Below are positions 737 to 20,000 of a DNA stretch of 20,000 bases, piece by piece. The first letter of the stretch is position 1; each line of letters begins with the position of its first letter. Under the pieces are notes generated by a model. The model had not been told where the DNA came from, did not search any database, and was given only the letters and a program-made list of their open reading frames with translations. The stretch is from a bacterium. Lineage in GTDB: Bacteria > UBP15 > UBA6099 > JAJRTR01. The stretch spans positions 52,644 through 72,643 of the forward strand of contig JAJRTR010000204.1 in assembly GCA_024278215.1 (NCBI GenBank). Reading direction: 5' to 3'. The translations under genes were made by a program, and so were the position numbers.

Positions 737-1144
737 ATGCCTGATAGAAAGATAAGAGTAATAATAGCGAAACCGGGTCTCGATGGTCACGACCGGGGCG
801 CGAAAGTAGTGGCGCGTGCGTTGCGTGACGGCGGGATGGAAGTGATCTACCTGGGTCTACAGCAGACACCCGCGGATATAGTTAATGCGGCGATTCAGGA
901 AGATGCGGATGTCATCGGGCTAAGCTCGCTCGCCGGTGCGCACATGACACATTTCAAACGTGTCCTTCAGTTGCTTAAAGACAACGATGCTGAAGATATT
1001 CTTACGGTCGGCGGCGGGATAATACCTGAAGAAGACAAGAAGGCGCTGCTCGACATGGGTGTCGCCGCGCTTTTCGATCCCGGCGCTCACACCGACGAGA
1101 TTATCAGGACAATCGAGCAGCTTGTCAAACAGCCTGTAGTTTAG
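737..1144 (+). CDS. Stand-alone cobalamin-binding subunit of methylmalonyl-CoA mutase (acyl-CoA mutase small subunit)
   Basis: 135 aa with the B12 His-on motif KPGLDGHDRG, plus GLSSL and VGGGII motifs. Confidence 0.93.
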   Translation: MPDRKIRVIIAKPGLDGHDRGAKVVARALRDGGMEVIYLGLQQTPADIVNAAIQEDADVIGLSSLAGAHMTHFKRVLQLLKDNDAEDILTVGGGIIPEEDKKALLDMGVAALFDPGAHTDEIIRTIEQLVKQPVV

Positions 1145-1167: not shown

Positions 1168-1286
1168 AAACATTGTGCAGAAAATCCTCTTTACTATAGA
1201 TCGGTCCTGTTTGTTCACACTGTATACCTGCCTGAAGGAGAAAATCCAATAAGCATGATTCAAGTTATTTGGAAGCGGGGAAAAAT

Positions 1287-2345
1287 ATGGGGAAAAAAGA
1301 AATACGAAAAAAGATAGATGCAATAGATTCGCGGATACTCGAGCTGCTCAACGAGCGTGCCGGTCTGGCACTTCAGACCAGTAAGTTCAAGAAGCATTTT
1401 TACGATCCGGTGCGCGAGCGGCAGATTTTCGAGCGTCTGTGGGAGATGAACAAGGGGCCGCTCGAAGATGACCACATTGCAAACATATACAGGGAAGTGT
1501 TGTCTGCCTGCCGCGGACTCCAGAGGCCACTCAAGGTTGCATTTCTGGGGCCGAAAGCGACGTTTTCACACGCCGCCGCAAAAAGTCGTTTCGGCGCGTC
1601 CATCGAGGAACATCCCTGTGCGGACATCGGACTGGTTTTTGATGAAGTCGAGAAGGACCGCGCCATCTACGGCGTCGTGCCGTTCGAGAACTCGAGCGAG
1701 GGCATTATCAACTACACGCTCGACCGCTTTGCCGTCACGCCGGTGAGTATATGCGGCGAGATTTACAGCGAGATCGTTATGAACCTGATCTCGAAGCAGG
1801 AAGACATATCGAAGATAAAGAAAATATACACGCATCCCAAGGCAATCGAGCAGTGTTCCGAGTGGCTGCGTCGGAACGCTTCGGACAAAGAGGTTATCCA
1901 AGTGGCGAGCACCGGGCTTGCCGCCCAGAGGGCAGCGCGCAGCAGGTCAGCCGCCGCCATTGCCGGAAAACTCGCGGCGGAAATATACAGCTTGAAAATC
2001 ATCGAATCGCACATCGAGGACAGCCGCGACAATGTCACACGTTTCATGATCATCGGCAAGCAGAAAATGCCGAAAACGGGCAATGATAAAACATCCGTGC
2101 TTTTCTCCGTCCGCCACGAACCGGGCACCCTCTACCGGGCGCTCAATTCGTTCGAGAAGTACAACATCAATCTGACAATGATGCAGGCGCGTCCTTCGCG
2201 GAAAGGGCAGTGGGAGTATATCTTCTTTGTCGATCTGATGGGGCACAAGTCGGACGAAGAGGTCAAGAGCGCGCTGGCCGAAATGAAAAAGGAAACCATC
2301 ATCCTTAAAACCTGCGGTTCCTATCCCGCTTCCGATCAACAGTGA
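1287..2345 (+). CDS. pheA: Bifunctional chorismate mutase / prephenate dehydratase (P-protein)
   Basis: N-terminal AroQ motifs (IRKKIDAIDSRILELLNERA, DPVRE), PDT motifs (FLGPKATFS, VPFENSSEG, NVTRF) and a C-terminal ACT domain (HEPGTL, ARPSR, YIFFVD). ATG 1287 preferred over TTG 1269. Confidence 0.95.
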   Translation: MGKKEIRKKIDAIDSRILELLNERAGLALQTSKFKKHFYDPVRERQIFERLWEMNKGPLEDDHIANIYREVLSACRGLQRPLKVAFLGPKATFSHAAAKSRFGASIEEHPCADIGLVFDEVEKDRAIYGVVPFENSSEGIINYTLDRFAVTPVSICGEIYSEIVMNLISKQEDISKIKKIYTHPKAIEQCSEWLRRNASDKEVIQVASTGLAAQRAARSRSAAAIAGKLAAEIYSLKIIESHIEDSRDNVTRFMIIGKQKMPKTGNDKTSVLFSVRHEPGTLYRALNSFEKYNINLTMMQARPSRKGQWEYIFFVDLMGHKSDEEVKSALAEMKKETIILKTCGSYPASDQQ

Positions 2346-2351
2346 CGGGTT

Positions 2352-4061
2352 TTATTCAGTTGATTTCAACTTATAAATCTTTATCTCCGGGCCGGGGCGG
2401 GCCGGGGTTTCGGGTATGAGCTTGATGAGCGCGGCTTCGGCGTCGAGGTCGTCGTAGAAGCGGACTGCGGCGGGGTAGTATTCGCGTGCGGCGCAGTAGC
2501 GGTCATATATCGCACTGGATGCAACAAGGTATTCATATCCTTCTTTCCTGTACATTTCCATTTTGTAGGCCGACAGTGAGTATGTGTTGAAGACATAGTA
2601 TTTCTTCTCGATTTTTTTCAGGGCCATCAAGTGAAATTTCTTTTGTGACGATGCTTCCGCTTCAGGCGTTTTGCGGTTTTTGTATGCGTAGAAGGGTACA
2701 GCTTCCTCGACATAGTATTTTTCGTAGCGCGCGGCGCGGCCTGTGTCGGTAAGCGATGCCGCGGTGGGGTGCAGTTGCGGGCCACCCATCTCGATGGCGA
2801 TGCGCGCGCCGGGCGGTATATTTTTTTCTATCCATTCGCGAGCGATCGTTCTTGTGTTGGTCTTTCTGATAAAGGCGTCGTATTTTATAGTTGCTGTTGC
2901 GGGAACAATTGTCAGGATGATTGCGACGGCGGCGACAACGGCGGCGCGGCGCGGCGCGGGTATTCTTAAGCGCTCCGGAAATTCCGCTACGATCCTGCCC
3001 GAGAGTATGCAAAGCGCCGGGATGATAATAACCATGTAGCGCTCGAATACCTGCGCGGACATGAATCCGTGGATGATGTAAAAGACGGCAATGTATGTGA
3101 GCAGCATCCAGTCCGCGCCGCGACGCTTTGCGGCGGCGAACGCTATAGCGCATAATGACACGAGCAGCAGAGGGAGTCCGAGGCCGTCGCGAAGGTAGAC
3201 CGCCGGGATTTGCCACCACATTTTCGACAGTACTTCCATACCGAGCCAGCCGTGTTCGAGCAGGCTGCGTTGTATGTTTATGTCCTGTGCGAAGGTTCTG
3301 AAATCGAGTATGGTGTACGGCGCACACAGGAAGAAGGCGGCGGCGGAGGCGAGGCTCATGAGAATAAGATTTACATTTATATGTTTAAGAGGATTCGCCG
3401 CGTGCCTGTCGGTGAACATGTGTGACGAGTGCGAAACGATAAGCGCGGGGACGACAACGAAGGCTGTGTATTTTGTGGCTATCGCTGCGCCTGCGGCGAG
3501 TCCGGCGAGGACGTAGTTTCTTTTTGTCGACGTGGCACCCGGTCCCGGCGCGAGAAACATTGCCAGCATTATCCAGAAAGTAACGGGCACGTCGGTTGTA
3601 GCGAAGTGGGAATGAACGCAGTGGAGATGCGCGAACGCGAGAAGCATAGCGGCGGCGAGACCGGCGCGTTTCCCGTAATACTTTTTTCCAATCGCGTACG
3701 CAAGCCAGACAGTTGCGACGCCCATGCAGGCCGAGAGAGTGCGGGCGATGAGGTAGAGAGGTGTGGGGTCGATGAAGTACATTGTGCCGAAGGCTGCCGC
3801 GCTGTGAAAGATGCCTGTGAAGCTGCCGACTACGAAATATGCGCCGAACAGAATGAAGACGAGATACATCTGGAGTGCGGGGTAGAAAAAGAAGTGCGGG
3901 TTGAGATCGCCTTTGCCGAAACGGACTGCACGGGCAACGATGTGGACTTCGTCGATATTGAGTTGATCGGGGAGACCGGATCCGTTGCCGTAGAGCCTGA
4001 CGGCCAGGGCGGCGACAAGTATCGTTGCGAGTATCAACCTGTCTTTAGTGCTGGTGGTCAT
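2352..4061 (-). CDS. GT-C fold membrane glycosyltransferase (ArnT/PMT-like, GT39/GT83 type)
   Basis: Many transmembrane segments, a DE motif in the first external loop (LNIDE), and FFYP, ATKY and ERY motifs typical of this family. Confidence 0.8.
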   Translation of the reverse strand: MTTSTKDRLILATILVAALAVRLYGNGSGLPDQLNIDEVHIVARAVRFGKGDLNPHFFFYPALQMYLVFILFGAYFVVGSFTGIFHSAAAFGTMYFIDPTPLYLIARTLSACMGVATVWLAYAIGKKYYGKRAGLAAAMLLAFAHLHCVHSHFATTDVPVTFWIMLAMFLAPGPGATSTKRNYVLAGLAAGAAIATKYTAFVVVPALIVSHSSHMFTDRHAANPLKHINVNLILMSLASAAAFFLCAPYTILDFRTFAQDINIQRSLLEHGWLGMEVLSKMWWQIPAVYLRDGLGLPLLLVSLCAIAFAAAKRRGADWMLLTYIAVFYIIHGFMSAQVFERYMVIIIPALCILSGRIVAEFPERLRIPAPRRAAVVAAVAIILTIVPATATIKYDAFIRKTNTRTIAREWIEKNIPPGARIAIEMGGPQLHPTAASLTDTGRAARYEKYYVEEAVPFYAYKNRKTPEAEASSQKKFHLMALKKIEKKYYVFNTYSLSAYKMEMYRKEGYEYLVASSAIYDRYCAAREYYPAAVRFYDDLDAEAALIKLIPETPARPGPEIKIYKLKSTE

Positions 4062-4138: not shown

Positions 4139-4747
4139 TTACCAGTGCCAGCCCAGTGAGCGGTTACGTTTCCTGAAAGTAATGTATATTGCTCCGGCGG
4201 CTGCGGCTTTCAATATTGCTCCGGGGATGAAGGGGACGAGGCCCATCATGACAACTTCGCGAATGCCTGTGCCGGTGACGAGTTTGAGGTGTAGACAGCC
4301 GAAGAAAAAGATTACGGCAAGTCCCGCGACAAGTGCTGAAGTTATTCTGAGAATGTTTTCCTTCTGAGAATCGTTGTTTCCGATTATGTAACCTATGACG
4401 GGCTGTGCGGCGAGAAAGCCGACGATGTATCCGCCTGTGGGGCCGGTGAGATGCGCTATGCCCACGCCCATGAGCGTGAACATGGGCATGCCCGCAATAC
4501 CAAGCACGATATATGCCGCCTGTGACACTGTTCCGTAGCGAGGACCAAGCAGCAGCGCGCCGAGCAGGACGAAAAACACTTGCATTGTGAAGGGCACAGG
4601 TGTGAAGGGGAGAGGAATCCTGATAAACGCGCCTATGGCTGTGAGAAATGTGAATGCCGCTATTCCAAGCATCACACTTATCTGTTTACTTATCAGAATA
4701 TCCCTGTTGGGAACTGAAGTTGCAATTTGTGGTCCTTGTATTCTCAT
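4139..4747 (-). CDS. bioY: Biotin transporter substrate-binding component BioY
   Basis: Motifs IPLPFTPVPFTMQ, LLGPRYG, GPTGGYIVGF and PFIPG. ATG at 4747 follows an AGGTG RBS-like site; alternative GTG start at 4756. Lies directly downstream of birA. Confidence 0.93.
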   Translation of the reverse strand: MRIQGPQIATSVPNRDILISKQISVMLGIAAFTFLTAIGAFIRIPLPFTPVPFTMQVFFVLLGALLLGPRYGTVSQAAYIVLGIAGMPMFTLMGVGIAHLTGPTGGYIVGFLAAQPVIGYIIGNNDSQKENILRITSALVAGLAVIFFFGCLHLKLVTGTGIREVVMMGLVPFIPGAILKAAAAGAIYITFRKRNRSLGWHW

Positions 4748-4752
4748 GTCTT

Positions 4753-5547
4753 TCACCTTATCAGAGTGGTTTCTTCAAACTCGACTGATTCTGTCGATCC
4801 GTTGTCATTGTGAACGATGAGCCGCCCGCGGTTGTCGATGTCGACAGGAACAACCTTTCGCTTGTTGCCGTCCGGCGATTGCAGAATTACATTGCGCCCG
4901 AACAGCACAGCCCTTTTTCTCCATTCCGCAATGATGTTATCTAATGAACCGGATTTGAATTCAGCGATTCTATTATCTATCATAATCGTGATTATTTCAA
5001 GCATTTTTTCAATCGGCCAGTTATTGCCGGACAGTGATTTTACAGAAGTGGAATGCTCCTGTATTTCCGCAGGCAACTGCTCCGGCGAGTTGTTCACGTT
5101 GATCCCGATGCCGATTGCCACGAACGGAATACTATTTTCGACAGATGTCGCCTCGCACAATATTCCGGCGATTTTTTTCATATCGACGAGCACGTCGTTC
5201 GGCCAGCTGAGACCAATGGAATCGGGCGGCAGTCCGAGTTCCACGAAAACCTTTTCGAGCGCGTCCGCCGCAGCAACACCTGCTGCAATGGACAGAGCGG
5301 GAAGACGCGCGATGTCTTTTGCGCCGGGTCGCACAAGCACACTCATCCACAGGCCGCCGCATGGCGAGTGCCACACGCGGCCCCGGCGGCCACGCCCCGC
5401 ACGTTGCTCGGCGGCGACGGCTATGGTTCCGTCCGGCGCACCGGCAAGCCCCAGCCTTCGGATCTCGTCGTTTGTGGATTCCACCACGCCGAACCGGTGG
5501 ATTCTTTTTGTTTCAGGCATATCCGGTATTCCGAATAATGGTTTCAA
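4753..5547 (-). CDS. birA: Biotin--protein ligase without an N-terminal HTH domain
   Basis: Motifs ESTND, AEQRAGRGRRGRVW, WPND, KKIAGIL and IGIGINV. Start may be ATG 5520. Confidence 0.92.
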   Translation of the reverse strand: MKPLFGIPDMPETKRIHRFGVVESTNDEIRRLGLAGAPDGTIAVAAEQRAGRGRRGRVWHSPCGGLWMSVLVRPGAKDIARLPALSIAAGVAAADALEKVFVELGLPPDSIGLSWPNDVLVDMKKIAGILCEATSVENSIPFVAIGIGINVNNSPEQLPAEIQEHSTSVKSLSGNNWPIEKMLEIITIMIDNRIAEFKSGSLDNIIAEWRKRAVLFGRNVILQSPDGNKRKVVPVDIDNRGRLIVHNDNGSTESVEFEETTLIR

Positions 5548-5558
5548 TTACTTGGTGC

Positions 5559-8522
5559 CTACAGTGCGATATTGCCGTGTTTGCGGCGCGGTCGGTGCTC
5601 GCGTTTCGACTGGAGCATGTCCAGCGCGGTGATGATACGCTGGCGTGTGTCGTTCGGAGCGATAACATCGTCGATGTAGCCGAATTCCGCCGTGATGTAG
5701 GGATTGGCGAATTTTTCACGGTACTCGCGTGCGAGTTCGGCGCGTTTGGCTTCGGGGTCGGCAGCCTCGCTGATCTGTTTTCGCGCAATTATGTTGATCG
5801 CGCCGTCGGGGCCCATCACGGCAAGTTCGGCGGTGGGCCATGCGAGGTTGATGTCGCCGCCCGAGTGTTTCGAGCACATGACGTCGTATGCGCCGCCGTA
5901 AGCTTTTCGTGTGATGATCGTGATCTTCGGCACAGTCGCTTCGCAGAAGGCATAGAGGAGTTTCGATCCGTGGCTGATGATGCCGCCATGTTCCTGGTCT
6001 GTGCCGGGCAGGAAGCCGGGCACATCAACGAATGTGACGAGCGGGATATTGAAAGAGTCGCAGAACCGAACGAAGCGGGCTGATTTGCGCGACGCGCTGA
6101 TGTTGAGGCAGCCTGCGAGGTAGTTGGGCTGGTTGGCGACGATACCCACGGGGAAGCCGTTATAGCGGGCGAAGCCGACGACGATGTTCTGCGCGTAGTA
6201 CTGGGCGACTTCGAGGAATTCGCCGGCGTCGACGGTTTTAGCGATGACATTTTTTATATCGTAAGGGTGGTTCGGATCGTCGGGGAGGATGTCGACGAGG
6301 TTTTCGCCGGGTTCGAGAATCGCGTCGCGCGGCTCGGCAAGCGGGGGGTCTTCCATGTTGTTGGAGGGCATGTATTCGAGCATATAGCGAACGAGGTCGA
6401 GACAGTCTTTCTCGGTTGGTGTGACGAACTGAACGACGCCGCTTGTGGAGTTGTGGGCCATGGCGCCGCCGAGTTCCTCGAAGGAAACTTCCTCGCCTGT
6501 CGCGGCCTTGATGACCTGCGGGCCGGTGATGAACATGTGGCTGGTTTTGTCTACCATGGCGATGAAGTCGGTCATAGCGGGCGAATAGACCGCGCCGCCG
6601 GCGCACGGGCCGAGGATCGCGGATATCTGAGGCACGACGCCTGAGCTGAGCACGTTGCGGAAGAAGATGTCGCCGTAGCCGGCGAGGCTCGCGACGCCTT
6701 CCTGAATGCGAGCGCCGCCGCAGTCGTTAAGCCCGATCACAGGCGCTCCGGCCTTCATCGCAAGGTCCATGAGCTTGCATACTTTCTGCGCGTAGCGTTC
6801 ACCGAGCGCACCGCCGAAGACAGTGAAATCCTGCGAGAAGACGAACACCAGGCGACCGTTTATGTTGCCGTATCCGCAGGCGACGCCGTCTCCGATCGGC
6901 CTTTTCTTGTCGAGCCCGAAATCGCGGCACCTGTGGCGCACAAACCTGTCGATCTCGACGAAAGTGCCCTCGTCGAGCAGGTAATCGATTCTTTCGTAGG
7001 CGGTCATCTTGCCGCGTTCGTGCTGTTTGTCGATGGCCTTGAGACCGCCGCCGAGTTTCGCTTCTTCGGACATCGTTTCATAAAGCTTCATTTTTCGCTG
7101 GTTGTCCGTGAGAGATTCGTCTTCCTCCTTCTCGGGGAGAGTGATCTCCGGCGCGGGCCGTTCCGGTTCTTTCTGTTTTTCGAGACGCTTCTTGAAGAAG
7201 TCGACGGCGACCTGCGGGAACAGCACATAAGTGAGGACGTCTTCTTCCGACTGTTTCCACTCTTTGACGGCTTTGCGGGCGGCGGGCAACTCGGGTTTGA
7301 TGGTCGCGCCGGGCCTGTCGGTGATGGGTTCGATGTCGCCGATTGCTTTTTTGAGCAGTTTTTTATTTATCTTGCCGGGCGCGCGGCCGTAGAGTCCCTT
7401 AAGATAAAGTTTCACTTCCTCGGTGATGATTTTATAGCGCTCGCCGGTCATTACGTTTATCGTAGCCTGTACGCCGACGATCTGGCTCGAGGGCGTAACG
7501 AGTGGCGGGTAGCCGAGGTCTTTGCGCACGCGCGGCACTTCGTCGAGCACTTCGTCTATCTTGTCCAGCATATCCTGTTCCTTGAGCTGGTTGACCAGGT
7601 TGGAGAACATGCCGCCGGGGATCATGTGCACGAGGATGCCGGTGGAAACGCGCTCGGACAGTGGGTTCAGCAGGTCCGCGTAATTCTCACGGACATGTTT
7701 GAAGCGGTCGGAAATCTCGACAAGTTTCGCGAGATCGAGGCCGGTGTCGTGTTCCGTGCCACGGAGCGCGGCGACAGTGGTTTCGGTGGGAGGTTGCGAC
7801 GTGCCGCCGGAAAGGGGCGAAAGCGCCGTGTCGAGAATATCCACGCCCGCGTCGCACGCGGCCATATACGCCATCGGCGCCATGCCGCTTGTGCAGTGGC
7901 TGTGCAGATGCACGATGGTGTTGAGCTTTTTCTTTAGCGCTTTTGTCAGTTCATATACAGCCTGTGGCGTGATGACACCCGCCATATCTTTTATACATAT
8001 CGAGTCCGCGCCCAGCTCGTGGAGTTCGGTGGCCGTCTCGACAAACTTCTTTATCGTATGCACGGGGCTGACCGTGTATGAGATGGTGCCCTCGCAGTGT
8101 GCGCCGACTTTCTTCACTTCGCGCATCGCCACTTCCATGTTGCGCACGTCGTTAAGGGCGTCAAACACACGGAACACATCCACGCCGTTCTTGTGCGCGA
8201 GCTGCACGAATTTTTTCACAACATCGTCCGCGTAGTGTTTGTAGCCGACGACATTCTGCCCGCGCAGCAGCATCTGCATCGGTGTGTTGGGGCATGCCTT
8301 CTTGAATCGGCGTATACGTTCCCAGGGGTCTTCGCCGAGGAACCTGATGCAGGAGTCGAATGTCGCGCCGCCCCAGGTCTCGAGCGAGAAGAACCCGATT
8401 TTATCCATGTCCGAGGCGATGGGCATCATGTCGTCGATCTTCATACGCGTTGCAATCAGCGACTGGTGCGCGTCGCGGAATATCGTGTCTGTAAGCTGAA
8501 CTTTTTTGTTTTTCCTTGCCAT
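5559..8522 (-). CDS. Fusion protein: pyruvate/oxaloacetate carboxyltransferase (5S/OadA/PycB-like) plus acyl-CoA carboxyltransferase (12S/PccB/MmdA-like)
   Basis: aa 1 to ~445: [56 protein letters not shown]. Then a charged Pro-rich linker. aa ~475-987: [49 protein letters not shown]. No biotinyl (MKM) domain. Confidence 0.92.
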
Positions 8523-8583: not shown

Positions 8584-8988
8584 CTACTCGCAGATTTCTA
8601 CAAGTATGCCGCCCGTCGCTTTTGGGTGGATGAAAGCGATTTTCTTATTGTGGGCACCGATGCGCGGCTTCTCGTCGATCATCCTCACGCCTGAAGCCAT
8701 AAGATTTTCGATGACCGATTCGATATTCTCGACAGCGATGGCAATGTGGTGGAGGCCGTCGCCTTTCTTGTCGAGGAATTTCGAGATGGGGCTGTCGTCG
8801 GTCGTCGGCTCGATCAGTTCGATTTTCGCGTCGCCCGTGTCGAGTATCGCGGCCTTCACCTTCTGCTCAGCGATCTCCTCGATGCCCTCGAATTCGAGTC
8901 CGATTAGGTCTTTATACAATCTGAGCTGCGCGTCGATGCTTTTGACGGCTATGCCTATGTGGTCGAGACCGTTTATTTTGTTTGCCAT
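8584..8988 (-). CDS. mce: Methylmalonyl-CoA epimerase
   Basis: VOC fold motifs DHIGIAV, IELIEP, GLHHIA, FIHPK and GGILVEI. ATG 8988 follows GGGGA. Confidence 0.93.
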   Translation of the reverse strand: MANKINGLDHIGIAVKSIDAQLRLYKDLIGLEFEGIEEIAEQKVKAAILDTGDAKIELIEPTTDDSPISKFLDKKGDGLHHIAIAVENIESVIENLMASGVRMIDEKPRIGAHNKKIAFIHPKATGGILVEICE

Positions 8989-9174
8989 GATTATTTCCCC
9001 CATTTGATTTTATGTGTAGCTCGTCGAAAAAAAACGGTAGTGGAAGCCGGTGCCGGCGGTTTCCGGTGTTCCCGGGGGCCGGTCGGGTAACACACAGACT
9101 GAACGCTCCCGCGTTCACAACCTTTTCTTTTCGCTACAAACGATTGGTGATTGCCGGTCCGGTGTCGATTCAAG

Positions 9175-9870
9175 TTACAGATCATTCAATTTAAGTTTCA
9201 GTCTTGCGATAGCGTTTGTAATGTCGATGTCCTTGGGACACGCCTCGTTGCAGTTGAAAATTGTGTGGCACTTCCACGGCCCCTTGCTCGTGTTTATCAG
9301 GGCGAGCCGTTCCTTCTGTGCCTGGTCGCGCGTGTCGAATATGAACCTGTAGGCTTTGAGCAGAGCGGACGGGCCGATATAATCGTCGTCTGCCCAGAAC
9401 GAGGGGCACGAAGACGTGCATGAAGCACACAGGATGCAGGATGCGGCTTCGTCGATAAGCTCCTGGTCTTCCGGCCACTGTATCCGCTCGGTGTCCGGTG
9501 GCGGCGAATTGTTCACGAAATATGGCATGATCGAGTAGAATCTTTCATAGAAGCGGTCCAGGTTAACGATGAGGTCTTTCTCGAGCGGGAACGAGCGAAG
9601 CGGTTCGACGATGATGTTTTTTCCGACATTCTTTACAAGGGTCTGGCAGGCCAGTCGGTTCTGTCCGTTTATCGTCATGGCACAGGAACCGCAGATCGCG
9701 TGGCCGCAGGAGCGGCGGAAAGCGAGTGTGCCGTCCTGGTGCCATTTTATCTCGTGCAGGCAGTCGAGCACCGGTGTTTCCGGCTCGGCCTCGACCGTGA
9801 AATCCTCGAAGTGAGGCCGCCTGTCCTTTGCAGGGTTGAACCTCTTTATCCTGAAGCGGATCTTCTGCAT
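9175..9870 (-). CDS. sdhB: Succinate dehydrogenase/fumarate reductase iron-sulfur subunit
   Basis: Cys clusters SCGHAICGSC...RLAC, CILCASCTSSCP and CHTIFNCNEACP. Start overlaps the sdhA stop. Confidence 0.95.
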   Translation of the reverse strand: MQKIRFRIKRFNPAKDRRPHFEDFTVEAEPETPVLDCLHEIKWHQDGTLAFRRSCGHAICGSCAMTINGQNRLACQTLVKNVGKNIIVEPLRSFPLEKDLIVNLDRFYERFYSIMPYFVNNSPPPDTERIQWPEDQELIDEAASCILCASCTSSCPSFWADDDYIGPSALLKAYRFIFDTRDQAQKERLALINTSKGPWKCHTIFNCNEACPKDIDITNAIARLKLKLNDL

Positions 9871-11579
9871 CAGTACTTCCTTTCCTTCGGCTGGTAGCGT
9901 GTTATCACCACATCGCGCCAGGCTGTATGTGGTTCTTTGTCTGTTTTAAACAGGAGTGTATGCTTGAGGAAATTCGCATCGTCGCGTTCGGTGAAATCCA
10001 CACGCGAGTGAGCGCCTCGACTCTCCTTGCGCTGCATGGCCGAGTAAGCGACCGCGGCAGCGAAATCGAGCATATTTTTCAGTTCCAGCGCTTCCTGGAG
10101 TTCGGTGTTGAACTGTTGCGTTTTGTCGTCAAGCGCGATTTTGTCGTAGTCGGCGGCGAGTTCGCGGACCTCATCATAAGCCTTCTGCATCCGTTTTTCT
10201 TCGCGGTACGCGCCGCAGTTTTCCATCATTGTGCCCTGCATCTTTTCGCGAAGTTCGGAAATCCTTATGCCGTCCGTTTTCGACAGCAGTTTCTTTATCA
10301 GTGCTTCGGTTTTCTTTTCGGGTCCGGCGGGCAGTGCCGGGCGTTGCGCTTCAGCAAGGTACTCACGCATATCTTTTCCTGTGCGGCGACCGAACACAAC
10401 AGTGTCCACCAGTGAATTACAGCCGAGCCGGTTCGCGCCATGGACCGATTCGCAGGCGGCTTCTCCGGCGGCGTAGAGGCCCGGAACCGGCGTGTTGTTT
10501 TCGTCGGCGATCACACGTCCCATAGTGTCGGTGGGAACGCCGCCCATCATGTAGTGGCCTGTGGGCATCACAGGTATCGGGTCCTTCGTGCAGTCGACGC
10601 CGACGTAAGTCATGCAGAACTTATAAATTTCAGGCAATTTTTTAAGGATGGCTTCGCGCCCGATGTGGTGTATCCGGAGATAGACATATTCTTTGCCGTT
10701 TATGCCGCGGCCCGCGGCGATTTCGTCATAGATAGCGCGTGAAATAATGTCGCGCGGGGCGAGGTCTTTCATGTCCGGCGCGTACCTTTCCATGAAGGGC
10801 TCGCCTTCGGAATTTATAAGTATGCCGCCCTCGCCGCGCACGCCCTCGGTGATGAGTATGCCGAGCGGATAGAGTCCGGTGGGGTGGAACTGCGCGAACT
10901 CCATATCCTGGAGCGGTATGCCCGCGTTGAATGCCATCGCGTAGCCGTCGCCAGTGCCTACATGCGCGTTCGACGTGATCCTGTAGATGCGGCCGCCGCC
11001 GCCCGTGGCAATCATTATCGCTGTGCAGTGGAATATGTGCAGTTCGCCCGTTTTCATGTCTGCCGCCACCGCGCCGCAGACCGTGCCGCCGTTCAACAGT
11101 AGTTCGGTGACGAAGAATTCGCTGTAGTAGTTGACTTTCGCGCGTACGCTCTGCTCGAACAGCGAGTGCAGGATAACATGGCCGGTGCGGTCGGCGGCGT
11201 AGCACGCGCGTGGGTGCGAGTGGCCGCCGAACGGTCGCTGCGCGATCCGGCCTTCGGGCGTTCGGCTGAACGGAACGCCTATATGTTCGAGTTCATACAC
11301 GGTCGGTATCGCGTTGTTGCAGAGAATCTCGATCTGGTTCTGGTCGCCGAGATAGTCGCTGCCCTTGACGGTGTCGAACATGTGTTCCTCGGGCGAGTCG
11401 GGTTCCATGTTGCCGAGCGCGGCGGCGATGCCGCCCTGCGCGGTGGTCGAGTGCGAGCGCGTGGGGAACACTTTCGTCAGGACCGCCACGCTGCATGTGT
11501 CGGCAAGTTCGATAGCCGCCCGCGTTCCCGCCAGTCCCGCCCCGATAATCAGAACATCATAAGTATGAAGTTTCGCCAT
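9870..11579 (-). CDS. sdhA: Succinate dehydrogenase/fumarate reductase flavoprotein subunit
   Basis: GAGLAG, covalent-FAD motif RSHSTTAQGG, QFHPTG, EGVRGEGG, HYMMGG, HGANRLG and ESRGAH. Confidence 0.96.
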   Translation of the reverse strand: MAKLHTYDVLIIGAGLAGTRAAIELADTCSVAVLTKVFPTRSHSTTAQGGIAAALGNMEPDSPEEHMFDTVKGSDYLGDQNQIEILCNNAIPTVYELEHIGVPFSRTPEGRIAQRPFGGHSHPRACYAADRTGHVILHSLFEQSVRAKVNYYSEFFVTELLLNGGTVCGAVAADMKTGELHIFHCTAIMIATGGGGRIYRITSNAHVGTGDGYAMAFNAGIPLQDMEFAQFHPTGLYPLGILITEGVRGEGGILINSEGEPFMERYAPDMKDLAPRDIISRAIYDEIAAGRGINGKEYVYLRIHHIGREAILKKLPEIYKFCMTYVGVDCTKDPIPVMPTGHYMMGGVPTDTMGRVIADENNTPVPGLYAAGEAACESVHGANRLGCNSLVDTVVFGRRTGKDMREYLAEAQRPALPAGPEKKTEALIKKLLSKTDGIRISELREKMQGTMMENCGAYREEKRMQKAYDEVRELAADYDKIALDDKTQQFNTELQEALELKNMLDFAAAVAYSAMQRKESRGAHSRVDFTERDDANFLKHTLLFKTDKEPHTAWRDVVITRYQPKERKY

Positions 11580-11603
11580 GTTTTCTTCTCGCGGGTTCGT
11601 TCG

Positions 11604-11996
11604 TTATTTGAACGGAAACCCCAGTATTGTTATTGTTCCGAGCGCATACAGGAGTATGCCGGACAGGATAAGCGCCGAATATATGGCGAGCCGCCAACTG
11701 TTTGTTTGCACATAGTCGGCGACGACGACCCACACACCGGCGAATCCGTGGTACAGCGCGAATGTCAGGAATGCCATATCGAAACACTTCCACAGCGGGT
11801 TCGAGAGCCGGTTCGCCACTACGTCGTAGGTCACTTCGCCCGTGCCGATCAGGTGGTTTATGCCGAAGTGAAGAAGGATGATCAGCACGATAAAAAGACC
11901 TGTGAGCCGCTGGAACAGCCATGTGCGCGAGCCGCCTGTCCCGGTGTTTCTGACCCACATCGACTGCGTATGTTCCTGTTTTTTCTCGTCCGACAT
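11604..11996 (-). CDS. sdhD: Succinate dehydrogenase hydrophobic anchor subunit
   Basis: WLFQRLTG, three TM helices, His residues in LLHFG and [12 protein letters not shown] motif, and position in the sdh operon. Confidence 0.88.
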
Positions 11997-12069
11997 CTTC
12001 TGTCCATTCCATTTATATAGGTTTTATCAGTACTTGACACTTACGAGTCGACCGCGCGTTTGTCCGAGA

Positions 12070-12450
12070 TTAATGAGCGAGTGCGTTCAACAGGTGCCCC
12101 GCAATCGGCGCCGCGCCCGCGACGAACAGCGCGGCGGCTATCACCATCATGATCCAGAAAAGCTGTTTCTGTATCTTCGTGCCGCCCCAGAAATCTATGA
12201 TTATCACACGCAGGCCGTTGAAAGCGTGGTAGAGTATCACGCCCAGCAGGCCGATCTCCATCAACTTGAACGCAGGCGAGCCGAGCAGTTCCATCACCCT
12301 GTCGAATCGTTCGGGGCCGTAGGCCAAGTTGTGGATCACGAATATGTGCAGGCAAAGGTAGGCGACGAGCGCGAGTCCCGACAGCCTGTGCAGCGCCCAG
12401 GAGACCATCCCGAGCTTCCACCTGTATCGAAATTCAAATATCGGTTTCAT
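12070..12450 (-). CDS. sdhC: Succinate dehydrogenase cytochrome b subunit
   Basis: Motifs [13 protein letters not shown] and [14 protein letters not shown]; three TM helices. Confidence 0.92.
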
Positions 12451-12551: not shown

Positions 12552-13418
12552 TCAGTCGATACGTTCTTTAACTTTGTCGACGAGTTCAGACACGAGCCCC
12601 GCCACCGGCGCGCCCGCCGCCTCCAGCGCTTCTATCTTCGACTCCGCCGTACCGACACCGCCCGATATTATCGCCCCGGCGTGTCCCATGCGCTTGCCTT
12701 TTGGCGCAGTTCGCCCGGATATAAATGCTACGACCGGCTTCGACATGGTTTTGATATATTCCGCCGCCCGCTCTTCGTCCGTGCCGCCGATCTCGCCCAC
12801 CATCACGACGACTTTTGTGTCCGGATCGTTCTCGAACATCTCCAGCACATCAATAAAAGTCGTACCGATTATCGGGTCGCCGCCTATGCCTATGACAGTC
12901 GTCTGGCCCGCGCCCGCGTGTGACAGTTCCGAAGCCACTTCATAGGTAAGTGTTCCGCTTCGGGAGATAATGCCCACGGGACCCGGCTCGAAAATGTGGC
13001 CGGGCATGATGCCCACTTTAGATTTGCCGACCGTCACCAGCCCCGGGCAATTCGGGCCGACAAGTCTCGATCCGCCCTCCCGCAGACGCTGGTTTATCTC
13101 GATCATATCCTTCACCGGGATGCCCTCGGTGATGCAGATAACCAGCGGCACATCGTTGAAAAGCGACTCGCGTATCGCGCCGGGCGCGAACGGAGCGGCG
13201 ACGAATATTATAGATGTATTCGCTCCGGTTTCCTTCACGCAATCCTCGACCGTGTCGAACACCGGCACGCCGTCGATAGCCTGTCCGCCCTTGCCGGGCG
13301 TTACGCCGCCCACGACATTTGTGCCGTACTCGATCATGCGCGCGAGATGGAACGAACCGTCGCGCCCCGTGATACCCTGTATGAGTACTTTTGTGTTTTC
13401 GTCTATCAGAATTCCCAT
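12552..13418 (-). CDS. sucD: Succinyl-CoA synthetase alpha subunit
   Basis: [35 protein letters not shown] and phospho-His motif RMGHAGAI. Start ATG 13418 (MGILID). Confidence 0.96.
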
Positions 13419-13460
13419 ATTAACGCACCTTTCGGAGCTTATGCCACACACGATTGTCGA

Positions 13461-14588
13461 TTATTTCACCGCGACCGCTTTTTTTACAGCGTCTTCCATG
13501 CGGGTGTCGGCGGAAATATTCTCTTTTTCCAGCATCTCGCGGGCGATCTCCTCGTTCGTGCCCGACAGCCTGATGAAGACCGGCCGGTCGATATTCTCGC
13601 TCCGCAGCGCTCCGATGAAACCGGCCGCGACATCGTCGCAGCGCGTGATGCCGCCGAATATATTTATCAGGATCGACTTCACATTTTTGTCACTGAGTAT
13701 CAGTTTCATTGCCTGCTTCATTTTTTCCGTATTCGAGCTGCCGCCGATATCCAGAAAGTTAGCGGGCTCGCCGCCGAAGTGTTTTACCATGTCCATCGTC
13801 GCCATGGCCAGCCCCGCGCCGTTGACTATGCAGCCTACGTTCCCGTCCAGTTTCACATAACTGAGTCCGTATTCTTTCGCTTTCACTTCGTCGGGGTTTT
13901 CCGGGTCGGCGCGTTCGAACTCTTTTATTTCTTTCCGGCGGTACATCGCGTTGTCGTCGGTGATGATCTTCGCGTCGACGAGAACGAGGTTTCCTTCGTC
14001 GGTCACCACCAGTGGGTTGATCTCCAGCAGTGTCAGGTCCATGTCCACAAACATATCGTAGAGCGCCAGCGCAAGTTTGATGAACTGATTGTGGAGTTCG
14101 CGCGGCACACCCATCGCGGCGGCGGCGCGTCGCACCTGGAAATCATATATCTTTCCTCTGGTGTCGGAAGTTATCTTAAGGATAGCCTCCGGGTTTTCTT
14201 TTGCCGTTTCCTCGATATCGACGCCGCCTTCGCCGCTCAGGATCATAGTGCAGGCGCGTTTTTCGCGGTCGAAAATGACACCGAAGTAAAATTCTTTTGC
14301 TATATCGCAAGCCCTGGTAACGAGCAGTTTTTTCACCGGCAAGCCCTTGATCGTGAGCCCCAGTATTTTCTCCGCAGTGGGCACGACATCTTCCATACTG
14401 CCTACAACCCTGACACCGCCCGCCTTGCCGCGCCCGCCGACATGCACCTGCGCTTTGAGCACCACCGGCAGGCCGATCTCTTCGACTATTTCCGGCACTT
14501 CCGCCGCACTCGCCGCCACGCGGCCCGGCATAATCGGCATCCCGTTTTTCCCGAGAAGTTCTTTCGACTGGTATTCGTGAAGTTTCAC
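13461..14588 (-). CDS. sucC: Succinyl-CoA synthetase beta subunit
   Basis: MKLHEYQSK, KAQVHVGGRGKAGGV, EINPL, NGAGLAMATMD, NFLDIGG and NIFGGITRCD. GTG start after GGAGG. Confidence 0.96.
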   Translation of the reverse strand: MKLHEYQSKELLGKNGMPIMPGRVAASAAEVPEIVEEIGLPVVLKAQVHVGGRGKAGGVRVVGSMEDVVPTAEKILGLTIKGLPVKKLLVTRACDIAKEFYFGVIFDREKRACTMILSGEGGVDIEETAKENPEAILKITSDTRGKIYDFQVRRAAAAMGVPRELHNQFIKLALALYDMFVDMDLTLLEINPLVVTDEGNLVLVDAKIITDDNAMYRRKEIKEFERADPENPDEVKAKEYGLSYVKLDGNVGCIVNGAGLAMATMDMVKHFGGEPANFLDIGGSSNTEKMKQAMKLILSDKNVKSILINIFGGITRCDDVAAGFIGALRSENIDRPVFIRLSGTNEEIAREMLEKENISADTRMEDAVKKAVAVK

Positions 14589-14589
14589 A

Positions 14590-15063
14590 TCAACCTCCGG
14601 TTTTTATCGTACACATCACATTGCCTTTTTTCATGATATCGCCGACATTCACAGAAATGGAAACGACGGTCCCGCTTGCCGTAGCGAGTATCGAGTTCTC
14701 CATCTTCATGGCTTCGAGGATGAAAACCGTGTCGCCTTTTTTTATCGTGTCGCCTTCGGCGGCCTTGACGGCAACTACCTTGCCAGCCATCGGCGCGACG
14801 ATTTTCGCGTCTCCGGCACCGGCTCCGGCATCCGCACCGGCGGGCGGGGCGGCTTTTGTCGTCGCCTGGGACGGACTCGGCGCTTTATCCGCCGACACCG
14901 TAAATGTCGGCACACTCCGGGCCGCCGCCTGCTCCTTTTCAACAGCAACCCTGAACTCCTTGCCCTACACATCGACAGTGAAACACTTCCGCGCACCTTC
15001 CGTGCCCTCGCTTTTCACAACGACCTCGAATTTATCTCCATCTACTTCAATTTTATATTTCAA
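14590..15063 (-). CDS. Biotin carboxyl carrier protein (1.3S/MmdC-like) interrupted by an in-frame TAG at codon 33 (pseudogene, read-through or sequence error)
   Basis: GGAGG RBS, then TTG at 15063, reads MKYKIEVDGDKFEVVVK...FTVDV*GKEFRVAVEKE..., continuing in frame into the Ala/Pro linker and the APMAGKV...LEAMKMEN biotinyl domain. TAG at 14965-14967. Confidence 0.88.
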
Positions 15064-15144: not shown

Positions 15145-15342
15145 TTACGCGATTCCGAGCCGTTCGGCACGCCCCGCCATTTTCCATGCCTCGCGCGGCG
15201 CTTTCCGCGCGCCGCGATCGGGCGAGGCCGCAACGTTGCCCGCCTTGCTCATTTCCATCACTACCGCAGCTATCGCGGCGACCCGCATCCTGTCTTTTTT
15301 AGTGGACTTTCGAGAAGTTTTCTTCGTCTTCTTCTTTGCCAT
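15145..15342 (-). CDS. Small acyl-CoA carboxylase epsilon-like / OadG C-terminal-like accessory protein
   Basis: 65 aa with a VAAIAAVV helix and a C-terminal WKMAGR motif, the pattern of carboxylase accessory subunits. First gene of the run; no TM helix. Confidence 0.65.
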   Translation of the reverse strand: MAKKKTKKTSRKSTKKDRMRVAAIAAVVMEMSKAGNVAASPDRGARKAPREAWKMAGRAERLGIA

Positions 15343-15386: not shown

Positions 15387-15415
15387 ATAATATATTGATT
15401 ATCGCTAATAGTCAA
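15387..15415 (-). promoter_or_regulatory. Sigma70-type promoter for the leftward operon
   Basis: TTGACT (15410-15415) - 17 bp - TATTAT (15387-15392) on the minus strand. Confidence 0.6.
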
Positions 15416-15447
15416 ACAGAAAACGATGGACGTCTCATGTCTGAAAA

Positions 15448-15475
15448 TTGAAAAAGGTGTGTTATCAGGTATAAT
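15448..15475 (+). promoter_or_regulatory. Sigma70-type promoter for the mutase large subunit
   Basis: TTGAAA (15448-15453) - 16 bp - TATAAT (15470-15475). Confidence 0.6.
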
Positions 15476-15590
15476 AGAAATTCGTAATCAGCCGGAAATC
15501 ATGACATTGCGCCGATGACTGAATCCGGTGCGGCAGACGCGCGGACAGGCGTGTTTCAATACAGTTCATTTCACACAGGAGGCAAAGGCT

Positions 15591-17255
15591 ATGACCGACA
15601 TCGACAGGATCAAACAGGAAAAAGAGAAATGGGAAAATGAAAAAGTCGACAAGGTGACCGCCAGATTTCCGGAAATGAAGGAACAGTTTGAAACACCGTC
15701 GGGCATTCCCGTGGAAAGACTGTACACACCGCCTGATACGGAAGAAGTCGACTATGTCGACGATATCGGTTTTCCCGGCGAATATCCCTTTACGCGCGGC
15801 GTGCAGCCGACGATGTACCGCAGCCGCTACTGGACGATGCGCCAGTATGCCGGGTTCGGCTCGGCGGAGGAAACGAACAAGCGGTTTCGCTACCTGATAG
15901 AACAGGGCCAGAAGGGGTTGAGCGTCGCATTCGACCTGCCGACCCAGATGGGCTACGACTCGGACGACGAACTTGTCGAGGGCGAAGTGGGCAAGACGGG
16001 CGTCGCCATCGACTCGGTGCGCGACATGGAGATTCTTTTCGACGGCATCGACCTTGGCAGGATCAGCACTTCGATGACGATCAACGCGCCCGCGAATGTT
16101 CTGCTTGCTTTCTACATCATCGTCGCGGAGAAAAACGGCGCGAAACAGGAAGACCTGAAAGGAACGATACAGAACGACATATTAAAGGAATATACCGCGC
16201 GCGGTACATATATATTTCCACCCGCGCCGTCGATGCGGCTTATCACCGACATATTCAGCTACTGCGGCGCGCACGTGCCGAAATGGAACACCATCAGCAT
16301 CAGCGGCTACCACATCCGCGAGGCGGGCGCGACGGCTGTGCAGGAAGTCGCTTTCACCATCGCCGACGGTATCGCCTATGTCGAAGCCGCGCTGGAAGCA
16401 GGACTGGACCTCGACGCGTTCGCGGGCCGCCTCAGCTTTTTCTTCAACGCGCACAGCAATCTTTTCGAGGAAATCGCCAAATTCCGCGCGGCGCGTCGCA
16501 TGTGGGCGAAGATTATGAAGGAGCGCTTCGGAGCGAAGAATCCGCGTTCGATGATGCTGCGTTTCCACACCCAGACGGCGGGCTCGATGCTCACAGCGCA
16601 GCAGGCGGAGAACAACATAGTGCGCGTGACGCTACAAGCGCTTGCCGGTGTGCTTGGCGGCACGCAGTCGCTGCACACGAACTCGATGGACGAAGCGCTC
16701 GCGCTCCCCACGGAAGACGCCGCCCGCATCGCGCTGCGCACACAACAGATAATCGCCCACGAGAGCGGCGCGGCCGACACCATCGACCCGCTGGCAGGCT
16801 CATACTTTATCGAATCGCTCACCGGCGAAATCGAAAAACGCGCCTTCGAGTACATCGACAAAATCGACAAAATGGGCGGCGCGGTCAAGTCGATCGAGAA
16901 AAATTACATGCAGGAGGAGATACATAACTCGGCCTATAAGTGGCAGAAAGAAGTCGAGCAGAACAAGCGTGTCGTCGTCGGCGTGAATAAGTTCCGGATC
17001 GAGGAAAAGACACGCCCGCCGCACTTCCATCTCAATCCGGAAATGGAAAAAGCGCAGAGAGAAAAACTCGCCCGCCTGCGCGACGAACGCGACGGCGACG
17101 CCGTGGACGCCGCGCTCGCGAAACTGAAGTTGCAGGCTCAAGACCCGAAAGGCGAGTTGTTTCCGTACATACTCGACGCGGCCCGCCGCGAGGCCACTCT
17201 CGGCGAAATATGCAACACACTCCGCGCCGTTTTCGGCGTGTACAGGGCAAAGTAG
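15591..17255 (+). CDS. Methylmalonyl-CoA mutase large (substrate-binding) subunit, lacking the B12 domain
   Basis: [19 protein letters not shown] (Tyr, MCM-type), [40 protein letters not shown] and [13 protein letters not shown] 15591 follows AGGAGG. Confidence 0.94.
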
Positions 17256-17300: not shown

Positions 17301-18581
17301 TCAGTATCGGTCCACAATTTGCGAAGACGGGAAATAATATTGAATGATTTCAGTATATGATTTGCCGAGCTTCGCCATCTCGCGGGCACCGTACTGGCAG
17401 AATCCGATGCCGTGTCCGAAACCCCTGCCTTTAAAAATTATGTAGTCGTCTTCACGGATAATATCATAAGAATTGCTGAGGATCAGGTTCCATCCGAAAC
17501 TTCTGGAGACAGCGCGGCGGAATTTATCGCCCTGTATCGTATAAACTTTTCCTTTGTCCTCGACTGTAACTTCCTGGGTGTAATCGCCCAACTCCGATCT
17601 GGATGATACGTATATCCGCGCATCGCGAGAAAGGGTGACGCCAAGTTTCCAGCCTGCGGCATTTATCACATTGCGTCTTTTTATCTTTCGTATCCAGGGG
17701 AAATATTTTGTGCCGCTTTTGTGAAAAGGGTCGCGCACCTGGACAAGGTTGTGATCCACAGAACCACCCCAGATTATGTCCGGTGTAGCTGTGTATCCGG
17801 AACATGCCGCCGTGTAATATGTTACCACCGGTTTGCCGTTGCGGTATATCACTTTGCCTTTAGTTTCTCTGATAAGCGACTTGATTTTCGCGGTTTGCGC
17901 GCGGCCTGTTTCTTCCCATACGGAATGGCCTCTGAAAAGCTGGCAATGGGTCGTGTCGCAAAAATCGAAGTCTTCCTTCCTGTGCCGCGCCCCGTGCGCT
18001 GTAATGTATGATCGTGAAACAATTGCCTGTGCCTTGATCACTTCCTTTTCTTTAAAACCCTTTATCTCCGATGCTACAACCATTGCGATGTAGTCTTCGA
18101 GATTTTTTGTAATCACAGGAAGTATCGTGCCGTTCTTCCTGAACTTTATCTCGAGCGAGCCGTAGTATTTCCTTATAACTTTTCCCGGTATTGTTATCTC
18201 GAAATCGAAGGGTGCGTTTGTGATCGAAGAAGGCGCGAAACGAAGATTGTGCACCTGTGACTTCGAGAAAATGTCGTTTCCGCTGTCACGCCCCAGAACA
18301 CGCAGGTAGCCTGCGCTGTCGGCCGCGACCTCGATGGTTCCGTCAGGGCCGACCGGCGAATCTCTCAGCGGTTCTCCGTTGATTACTGGTATTACAGGCT
18401 TCCCGTAGCGCTTGAATGTTATGATTATGTGCTGCGGTTTGTAGAGAGTAAGCACGCCGATGCGGACACGGCTTCCTATTTTTTCGGCGCGTGCTGTTTT
18501 AGTGAATAAGGCGGACGTGAGGAATGAAAAAAACATTATTGAAATGACAAACAGCAAATATAAGGTGTGGGGCGGCGACAC
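17301..18581 (-). CDS. SpoIID/LytB domain peptidoglycan lytic transglycosylase-like protein
   Basis: LEDYIAMVVASE, KAQAIVSRSY, CDTTHCQ, GRGFGHGIGFCQYGA and IIQYYFP. Hydrophobic signal ending in ARA. Start uncertain (GTG 18581 or ATG 18536 rather than 18743). Confidence 0.85.
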   Translation of the reverse strand: MSPPHTLYLLFVISIMFFSFLTSALFTKTARAEKIGSRVRIGVLTLYKPQHIIITFKRYGKPVIPVINGEPLRDSPVGPDGTIEVAADSAGYLRVLGRDSGNDIFSKSQVHNLRFAPSSITNAPFDFEITIPGKVIRKYYGSLEIKFRKNGTILPVITKNLEDYIAMVVASEIKGFKEKEVIKAQAIVSRSYITAHGARHRKEDFDFCDTTHCQLFRGHSVWEETGRAQTAKIKSLIRETKGKVIYRNGKPVVTYYTAACSGYTATPDIIWGGSVDHNLVQVRDPFHKSGTKYFPWIRKIKRRNVINAAGWKLGVTLSRDARIYVSSRSELGDYTQEVTVEDKGKVYTIQGDKFRRAVSRSFGWNLILSNSYDIIREDDYIIFKGRGFGHGIGFCQYGAREMAKLGKSYTEIIQYYFPSSQIVDRY

Positions 18582-18764
18582 GGGAACGCCCTGTGAACAG
18601 TTGCATTTATTGTTGTCTGAGTATGACAATGCCACACCTGCCGCTGCCTCGCGTTTTGTTGTAGATAGTGTTAACGGCGCGGGGTGAAATGTCAACGTGA
18701 CGGGCTTTGCCGGGGGATGGGCGGCATAAAAACAGCATGTCATGGTTTTTCCATGCTCCCGCGG

Positions 18765-19745: not shown

Positions 19746-19828
19746 GTCAGGAATTGTAGCAGATTTTGAAATGCCGGTGTGAAAAACGTAAAAATAAGAC
19801 CGTGATTTTCGAAATAGTATTCTGACAG

Positions 19829-20000
19829 GAGCCAGTTGCAAAATTATGTTCGAAGCGAGGTCGAGCGTATTCGGTCGGAAGCAAGGCGGAGGTGCAAAAT
19901 CCCCGCAGGCGTACTTGTAGAGTACGTCGAGGATGATTTTGTGCCGACAACGCAGCTGTTAACAATTGCAGCCGACCGTAGCCGAATCAGAATTTTGCAA
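19829..20000. mobile_element. Palindromic MITE-like element, copy 2 (right end cut by the window edge)
   Basis: Aligns to 535-705 in the same orientation with about 17 substitutions and 1 indel by manual count (~90%). Left TIR GAGCCAGTTGCAAAATT. Confidence 0.85.

Follow-up and report, generated by a model that had tools for sequence, protein, structure and literature searches.

A minus-strand open reading frame (ORF) at 5559..8522 of the 20,000-nt stretch of contig JAJRTR010000204.1 analysed here (the window) encodes a single chain of 987 aa, P0001, in which a keto-acid carboxyltransferase of the transcarboxylase 5S type is joined to an acyl-CoA carboxyltransferase of the 12S type. This 5S-12S fusion is genuine; it rearranges the parts of a known enzyme in a way that is rarely seen. 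From its domains, its operon and the enzyme inventory of its genome, P0001 probably (with a probability of about 0.75) forms the catalytic part of a methylmalonyl-CoA:pyruvate transcarboxylase that works without ATP. The source genome, G000, is 95.2% complete; it is one of 13 genomes of its phylum that were compared (G000-G012), and a further fusion-bearing genome, G041, was included.

The fusion gene is supported by its ORF, by Pfam and NCBIfam matches and by full-length homologues. It is read without interruption, the plus-strand frame over 5559-8522 is broken by stops, and there is no N anywhere in the window. The keto-acid half comprises residues 1-446 (7185..8522), with Pfam matches to HMGL-like (7-272) and PYC_OADA (296-465). 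The acyl-CoA half comprises residues 479-987 (5562..7088), and its Carboxyl_trans match (499-985) spans positions 1-493 of the 493 in the profile, so this domain is complete. Alignment places between them a charged, Pro-rich linker (residues 447-478, 7089..7184) that varies among the fusions in both length and sequence. Pfam matched no Biotin_lipoyl domain within P0001. The motifs RDAHQS (16-21), KDMAG (178-182) and HSH (207-209) lie in the N-terminal half, in which R16, D17, Q20, R87, K178, H207, H209 and T343 are invariant in all six aligned fusions; in the C-terminal half the same is true of G642-G643 and G876-G877-A878 among the aligned fusions. The initial annotation had described one uninterrupted 987-aa ORF, its strand unstated, with two complete carboxyltransferases, these motifs (the last as HxH) and a linker at about 7100-7190. 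All of this was borne out, with the linker at nt 7184-7089.

The best PDB matches of the N-terminal half are PycB (5ks8, 539 bits), OadA (2nx9, 529 bits) and the transcarboxylase 5S subunit (1rqb, 464 bits), to which it aligns full-length. Those of the C-terminal half are a PccB-type protein (1vrg, 710 bits) and the transcarboxylase 12S subunit (1on3, 586 bits). In the alignment D880 pairs with D422 of the PccB structure 1xnv, a position that varies in the variant entries 3mfm, 3ibb and 3iav; an Asp of this type presumably favours propionyl-CoA. P0001 matches the NCBIfam models for PycB, OadA, 5S and MmdA, of which the PycB domain model alone is matched above its cut-off. An AlphaFold2 model from a six-sequence alignment of the fusion had low confidence (mean predicted local distance difference test score 45.7, predicted template modelling score 0.35) and was left unused, and a deeper fusion alignment placed 5S-only rows, at about 20% identity, wrongly.

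The fusion recurs in independent genomes, as the initial annotation had asked of it, and the prospect raised there that all close homologs are split genes did not hold. Full-length homologues P0002-P0006 align over 99-100% of the query with 68-81% identity (best 120 of 8000 scored candidates), and a search of proteins 782-2230 aa long with the 5S half as query brought up this fusion set again (best 120 of 6970). Each of the five sits alone in its cluster, the source being JGI, Logan, NCBI or ENA. There are at least eight distinct fused proteins including P0001; of the seven others, all in frame, two that are mutually close stand at 65-66% and the rest are 68-81% identical. Among 41 whole genomes the fusion was found in 3 of the 13 phylum members (G000, G002 and G005) and in none of the 28 outside the phylum. 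The G005 gene is truncated by a contig end, with its 5S-12S junction intact. In a species collection, 80 loci listed of 568 included 2 that are fused and 12 with split 12S-then-5S neighbours; one fused locus is the same ORF as in G002 and the other is P0005, in a record ranked Myxococcota.

Linkers are 19-47% identical among the fusions, compared with 67-85% for the domains, and are 40-64 residues long over the span compared. Because the junction is in frame in independent assemblies with diverged linkers, the fusion is not a local misassembly, another artefact or a product of chance. Two other searches gave no fusion: a 50%-representative search had no two-domain protein among its best 150, but it missed even the cluster to which the fusion belongs and so cannot see such proteins, and among the 80 loci listed in a metagenome junction scan none aligned across the junction. 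A 12S-then-5S protein of 931 aa, P0008, was not counted as a fusion; with its garbled ends and internal gaps it looks like read-through of adjacent genes.

Trees were built from hand-picked close homologues, excluding duplicates, P0008 and the broken 5S half of G005. In the 5S tree (34 rows, rooted on two pyruvate carboxylases) the halves of seven fusions form one clade (99/95), which lies within a group holding the unfused 5S of G004 and 5S-carrier proteins of Planctomycetota (98/99). In the 12S tree (38 rows, bootstrap values not fully converged) a clade of six fusions (100/100) and another of G002 and G005 (100/97) both group with the unfused 12S of G004 and G012 (91/97). The inner order of the fusions is identical in the two trees. 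It counts against a single origin that all eight fusions form one 12S clade in only 18% of bootstrap trees; such a clade was not rejected in the approximately unbiased (AU) test (p-AU 0.41). Further tests used 17-row subsets, with groups named after the trees had been seen. Forcing P0005 and P0006 outside the other fusions was rejected (p-AU 0.032 for 5S, 0.0003 for 12S), as was joining them to the unfused Myxococcota homologue (p-AU 1.5e-7 and 8.5e-6). These results suggest that the fusion arose once, in a small uncultured phylum and from its own split genes, and that the whole gene moved to at least one Myxococcota genome.

The biotin enzymes of G000 are few. The biotin carboxylase profile PF02785 had 0 matches (controls 13/14), and the carboxylase of G005 used as a query found none either; OadB was found neither with PF03977 (0 matches) nor with the OadB fragment of G012. 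G000 has one true biotin carrier and one Carboxyl_trans (acyl-CoA carboxyltransferase) gene. The lack of biotin carboxylase and OadB that the initial annotation had noted in the window thus extends to all of the G000 assembly (95.2% complete). A pair of carboxyltransferases served by a single carrier could only exchange carboxyl groups with each other, because there is no ATP-using loader and no Na+-pumping unloader. The genome-wide picture – no biotin carboxylase or OadB, one carrier, one acyl-CoA carboxyltransferase, and an operon for the methylmalonyl-CoA pathway – strengthens the ATP-free reading. ATP-free transfer between oxaloacetate/pyruvate and propionyl-/methylmalonyl-CoA, as first proposed, is still the best reading of this inventory and operon, and is qualified by a carboxylase in G005 and by a stop codon in the carrier gene.

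By analogy with family chemistry, the N-terminal metal/Lys178 site would exchange a carboxyl group between oxaloacetate and the biotin on the carrier. The carrier, a free protein, would then swing over to the C-terminal site, where the carboxyl would be passed to propionyl-CoA, or the reverse reaction would take place. Together with epimerase, mutase, SucCD, Sdh, fumarase and malate dehydrogenase (MDH), the fusion would close a methylmalonyl-CoA cycle. The C-terminal halves would form the usual hexamer, giving one 5S-type domain per 12S-type domain, and a 65-aa protein encoded in the same operon may assist carrier docking.

Several observations weigh against the transcarboxylase assignment. 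P0001 misses the cut-off of the 5S equivalog PRK12330 (571.5 vs 827 bits), and for both halves the Propionibacterium subunits are outscored, by PycB/OadA for the one and by PccB for the other. In G005 a stand-alone PRK08654-type biotin carboxylase accompanies the fusion and a single carrier, so that the fusion need not go with ATP-free use; in G004 these parts, carboxylase included, are present unfused. The missing carboxylase may reflect a gap in the assemblies: about 5% of G000 is lacking, the G002 assembly is without its carrier (its mutase gene stops at a contig end), and completeness is not given for G041. Finally, the only biotin carrier gene of G000 bears an in-frame TAG.

Alternatively, the fusion could be the shared carboxyltransferase module of an ATP-dependent hub for pyruvate and propionyl-CoA carboxylation, in which a stand-alone biotin carboxylase would charge the single carrier for use by both domains, the carboxylase gene of G000 being unassembled. 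The gene sets of G005 and G004 fit such a hub, as does the likeness of the halves to PycB and PccB, and the carboxylase contig of G005 is apparently native to the phylum, one of its genes being 59% identical to a G000 gene. The biotin carboxylases of the two genomes (G005:C285 5527-7008 and G004:C461 7183-8670) are 63% identical and share a C-terminal extension; both genes lie far from any carboxyltransferase gene. We nevertheless regard the hub as unlikely. Biotin carboxylase was absent from searches in three of the four fusion-bearing genomes (G000, G002 and G041) and is present in 2 of the 13 phylum genomes; the operon, with its carrier, ligase and transporter genes, has none; and two carboxyltransferases sharing a carrier could transcarboxylate even beside a carboxylase. 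That P0001 is instead the soluble part of a Na+-pumping oxaloacetate or methylmalonyl-CoA decarboxylase, with an unassembled membrane subunit, is hardly credible. The oadA and mmdA models do give it high scores, both below cut-off, and the OadB of G012 adjoins an unfused 12S-type gene; however, OadB was found in none of the three fusion-bearing phylum genomes and in 1 of 13 overall, and the G012 fragment is unmatched in G000.

The carrier gene (14590..15063, minus strand; Pfam and alignment) has 157 codons from a TTG at 15063, preceded by a GGAGG site, and encodes the EAMKM motif. Alignment to its closest homologue, P0384, shows an in-frame TAG at codon 33 (14965..14967, minus strand). The ORF as called, 14590-14913 (107 aa from GTG 14913), is the part downstream of the TAG; this is the separate carrier that the initial annotation had placed in the same run of genes, having missed the TAG and the TTG start. 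P0384 is intact, at 156 aa, and identities to it are 21/32 before the stop and 83/123 after. Homologues have Ala or Ser at the TAG position, and the gene is intact in G005 and L024. Because conservation is no lower ahead of the stop than in the remainder of the gene and the other operon genes are open, the TAG is a very recent nonsense mutation or a consensus error, and it says little about the role for which the system evolved. Amber recoding was ruled out: TAG is an ordinary stop in G000 (it ends 305 of 1576 long ORFs), no pyrrolysyl-tRNA synthetase (PylRS) was found over cut-off in the 13 phylum genomes, and no tRNA with a CTA anticodon is listed for G000.

If the mutation is real and there is no good downstream restart, the system would be inactive or crippled. 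The TAG (14967-14965) is in frame and would be read as an ordinary stop, no second copy of the segment containing it was found, and no comparable true internal stop was seen in 42 conserved places covering 16,683 codons, where the three flagged were apparent gene borders or shadow frames. Set against this are the conservation and open frames just described, and a biotinyl domain that lies entirely after the stop; we find a crippled system improbable.

The minus-strand operon runs in the order 65-aa ORF, biotin carrier, sucC, sucD, sdhC, sdhD, sdhA, sdhB, epimerase, fusion, birA, bioY. Succinyl-CoA synthetase (sucC, sucD; 12552..14588), succinate:quinone oxidoreductase (sdhC, sdhD, sdhA, sdhB; 9175..12450) and, immediately downstream of the fusion, biotin ligase and biotin transporter (birA, bioY; 4139..5547) were assigned by Pfam. 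The methylmalonyl-CoA epimerase (8584..9003) matches TIGR03081 with 163.7 bits against a cut-off of 114.95. On the plus strand are the catalytic subunit of methylmalonyl-CoA mutase (15528..17255; Pfam and NCBIfam), divergent from the operon, and the mutase B12-binding subunit (737..1144; TIGR00640). In G005 the gene order is mutase, small ORF, carrier, epimerase.

The 65-aa ORF (15145..15342, minus strand), recognized by position and by a motif kept in relatives, encodes an Ala-rich helix with a W-x-x-x-G-R motif; both the motif and the place before the carrier gene are kept in G005 and L016. It is probably an epsilon-like accessory subunit. It had no Pfam or NCBIfam match, pairwise BLAST with its counterparts was not significant, and an atlas search returned unnamed clusters only (0.77-0.83). 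A complex prediction for the G005 small protein with two carrier N-terminal segments scored 0.25, against a mark of 0.32. The docking idea comes from the helix-in-barrel (BT-like) docking described in the available part of PMC5059739.

The remaining parts of a cycle are found elsewhere in G000. There is an MDH-family gene beside one for isocitrate dehydrogenase, a class I fumarase, a citrate/methylcitrate synthase, seven POR_N matches and a GTP-type phosphoenolpyruvate carboxykinase (PEPCK-GTP); PEPCK-ATP, malic enzyme, COX1 and [FeFe]-hydrogenase had no matches. E. coli queries found AckA, Pta, pyruvate kinase, CoA-transferase, cydA, complex I subunits, electron-transfer flavoprotein (ETF) and 17 acyl-CoA dehydrogenase matches, and did not find Ppc, ScpC, SucA/B, FabD, FabF, PlsX or HypD/E. 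The oxidative direction, in which propionyl-CoA is turned into pyruvate and acetyl-CoA as by the mmc cluster of Pelotomaculum, is slightly better than an even bet, because acyl-CoA dehydrogenases are numerous, SucCD stands in place of a succinate CoA-transferase (no ScpC), and there are a bd oxidase, ETF and complex I. Other features speak against it: no [FeFe]-hydrogenase, HypD/E or COX1 was found, and the missing hydrogenases speak for a cycle that serves as an electron sink; with Pta, AckA and PEPCK-GTP it could be driven towards propionate; and a distant PrpD-like gene is another route for propionyl-CoA. Propionate formation is possible, at a distinctly lower probability, and operation in both directions is doubtful.

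Across the phylum, [FeFe]-hydrogenase is present in 10 of the 13 genomes, with no match in G000, and the PEPCK-GTP match of G000 is weaker (E 2e-106) than that of most relatives (about 1e-160). A second mutase catalytic subunit in G000 (G000:C9 2932-4473) is 53% identical to the one in the window and has an ArgK/MeaB-like match nearby. Neither half of P0001 is matched in seven genomes of family f3 (G003, G006-G011), which do have mutase-family genes; these must act in some other pathway.

Malonyl-CoA is another conceivable product. The enzyme might mainly make it from acetyl-CoA and oxaloacetate for fatty acids, in place of acetyl-CoA carboxylase, a role proposed for the protist fusion of Giardia and retortamonads in the accessible text of PMC7985675. 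Consistent with this, AccA, AccD and AccC were not found in G000. Malonyl-CoA supply is nonetheless an unlikely purpose, because FabD was found in 0 of the 13 genomes and ketoacyl-synthase gave only short, weak matches (best E 4e-8, in frames of about 400 aa, read as thiolases). The phylum, in whose genomes AccA/AccD-like genes had no match either, appears to be without standard fatty-acid synthesis, and no fabD, fabF or plsX was found in G000, which does have fabH- and ACP-like matches. D880, at the PccB position presumed to prefer propionyl-CoA, and an operon for the methylmalonyl-CoA pathway also speak against malonyl-CoA, and we give this role very little weight.

Transcarboxylase is large and built from many subunits, and its architecture has been difficult to examine in the intact enzyme. 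If the proposed function is true, a one-chain catalytic core with a 1:1 ratio would be a simpler object for cryo-electron microscopy. The fusion would also be a candidate module, of two or three genes, for bringing ATP-free carboxyl transfer into the engineering of propionate or malonyl-CoA pathways. Its relatives form a small natural series (split genes and a carboxylase, a fusion and a carboxylase, a fusion with no carboxylase) that bears on how transcarboxylases arise from carboxylases. No new chemistry and no new pathway is added. More speculatively, and in our view rather unlikely as a whole, tethering would force a holoenzyme unlike that of Propionibacterium, the G005 core with its carboxylase would be a three-way carboxyl hub, and the pure transcarboxylase would have arisen by loss of one gene. 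With hexamer and dimer states assumed from homologues, three tethers on each hexamer face would allow 5S dimers only across the equator or between hexamers, as a chain or lattice. The G005 hub would join bicarbonate, pyruvate/oxaloacetate and propionyl-/methylmalonyl-CoA on one carrier.

Other features of the window can be noted briefly. A 64-aa ORF at 8991-9185 had no Pfam match and was not taken as a gene. SdhC and SdhD (11604-12450, minus strand), read by eye and unaligned, each have two His in membrane segments, suggesting a two-heme anchor. A promoter scan gave 10 sites against 7.6 +/- 3.0 in shuffles, overall not above chance; at that chance level, the gap between operon and mutase (15387-15475) has back-to-back promoter-like sites (10/12 on the minus and 11/12 on the plus strand). 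Unrelated neighbours at 1269-4061 and 17301-19841 include, by Pfam, a chorismate mutase/prephenate dehydratase, a PMT-family glycosyltransferase, a SpoIID-like protein and a PHB-depolymerase-like esterase.

The transcarboxylase of Propionibacterium freudenreichii (EC 2.1.3.1; 1rqb, 1on3) shares with the present system both carboxyltransferase families, a free carrier and a small operon ORF. It consists of three separate subunits, 12S, 5S and 1.3S, whereas here 5S and 12S are in one chain. The 26S enzyme has six 5S dimers per 12S hexamer, from which the fixed 1:1 ratio of the fusion would differ. According to the available part of PMC2909200, its operon comprises locus tags 18870 (5S), 18860 (12S), 18850 (small ORF) and 18840 (1.3S), with the 5S and 12S genes adjacent.

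The nearest structural relatives of the N-terminal half, PycB (5ks8) and OadA (2nx9), extend further to include a carrier domain and depend on a biotin carboxylase or OadB; no gene for either partner was found in G000. Proteins of 1100-1160 aa (P0173, P0279-P0281, P0284-P0286 and others) have HMGL-like and PYC_OADA domains only, two keto-acid carboxyltransferase domains in tandem in the case of P0173; the few that are named are mostly Bacteroidales-related. Uncultured Planctomycetota, Thermoplasmatota and Myxococcota have split 12S-then-5S operons, with two genes in the order opposite to that of the fusion. In Planctomycetota the carrier is fused to 5S, and some of these operons have birA, mutase and epimerase near. 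Four Planctomycetota loci (L028, L054, L083 and L029) have 12S, a small ORF and 5S, the last fused to a carrier in L028, L054 and L083; two of the four have mutase and epimerase near, and of three genomes tested two gave no match to biotin carboxylase.

The Giardia fusion probably has its acyl-CoA domain first; the texts that describe it cite or echo Jordan et al. (2003). In the portions available, PMC8700996 gives GL50803_113021 as a fused (methyl)malonyl-CoA:pyruvate transcarboxylase of 1338 aa with a carrier domain, PMC9547401 also has the single-chain Giardia enzyme, and PMC7985675 has its retortamonad orthologues. As far as these texts go, both carboxyltransferases are in one polypeptide, as here, in a eukaryotic protein with a carrier domain, and P0001 has none. 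The Giardia sequence did not come up in searches with the fusion protein, and we infer that the Giardia and bacterial fusions are of independent origin. The novelty claimed for the architecture in the initial annotation was overstated, a single-chain transcarboxylase being in print in the available text of PMC8700996 and PMC7985675. What stands is the bacterial, carrier-less 5S-then-12S order, for which no paper was found in the full-text literature; subscription papers and supplements could hold one.

In gene content the operon matches the mmc cluster of Pelotomaculum thermopropionicum (Pot, propionyl-CoA:oxaloacetate transcarboxylase), which in the available parts of PMC8892533 and PMC6046458 comprises Scs, mutase, epimerase, the alpha, epsilon and gamma subunits, and 5S. 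The two differ, on the same partial texts, in that mmcH and mmcL are separate in Pelotomaculum, while here Sdh lies inside the cluster, fumarase and MDH lie outside it, and no hydrogenase was found. P0001 itself is outside the three-subunit Propionibacterium family by its architecture, and outside the Giardia type by its carrier content.

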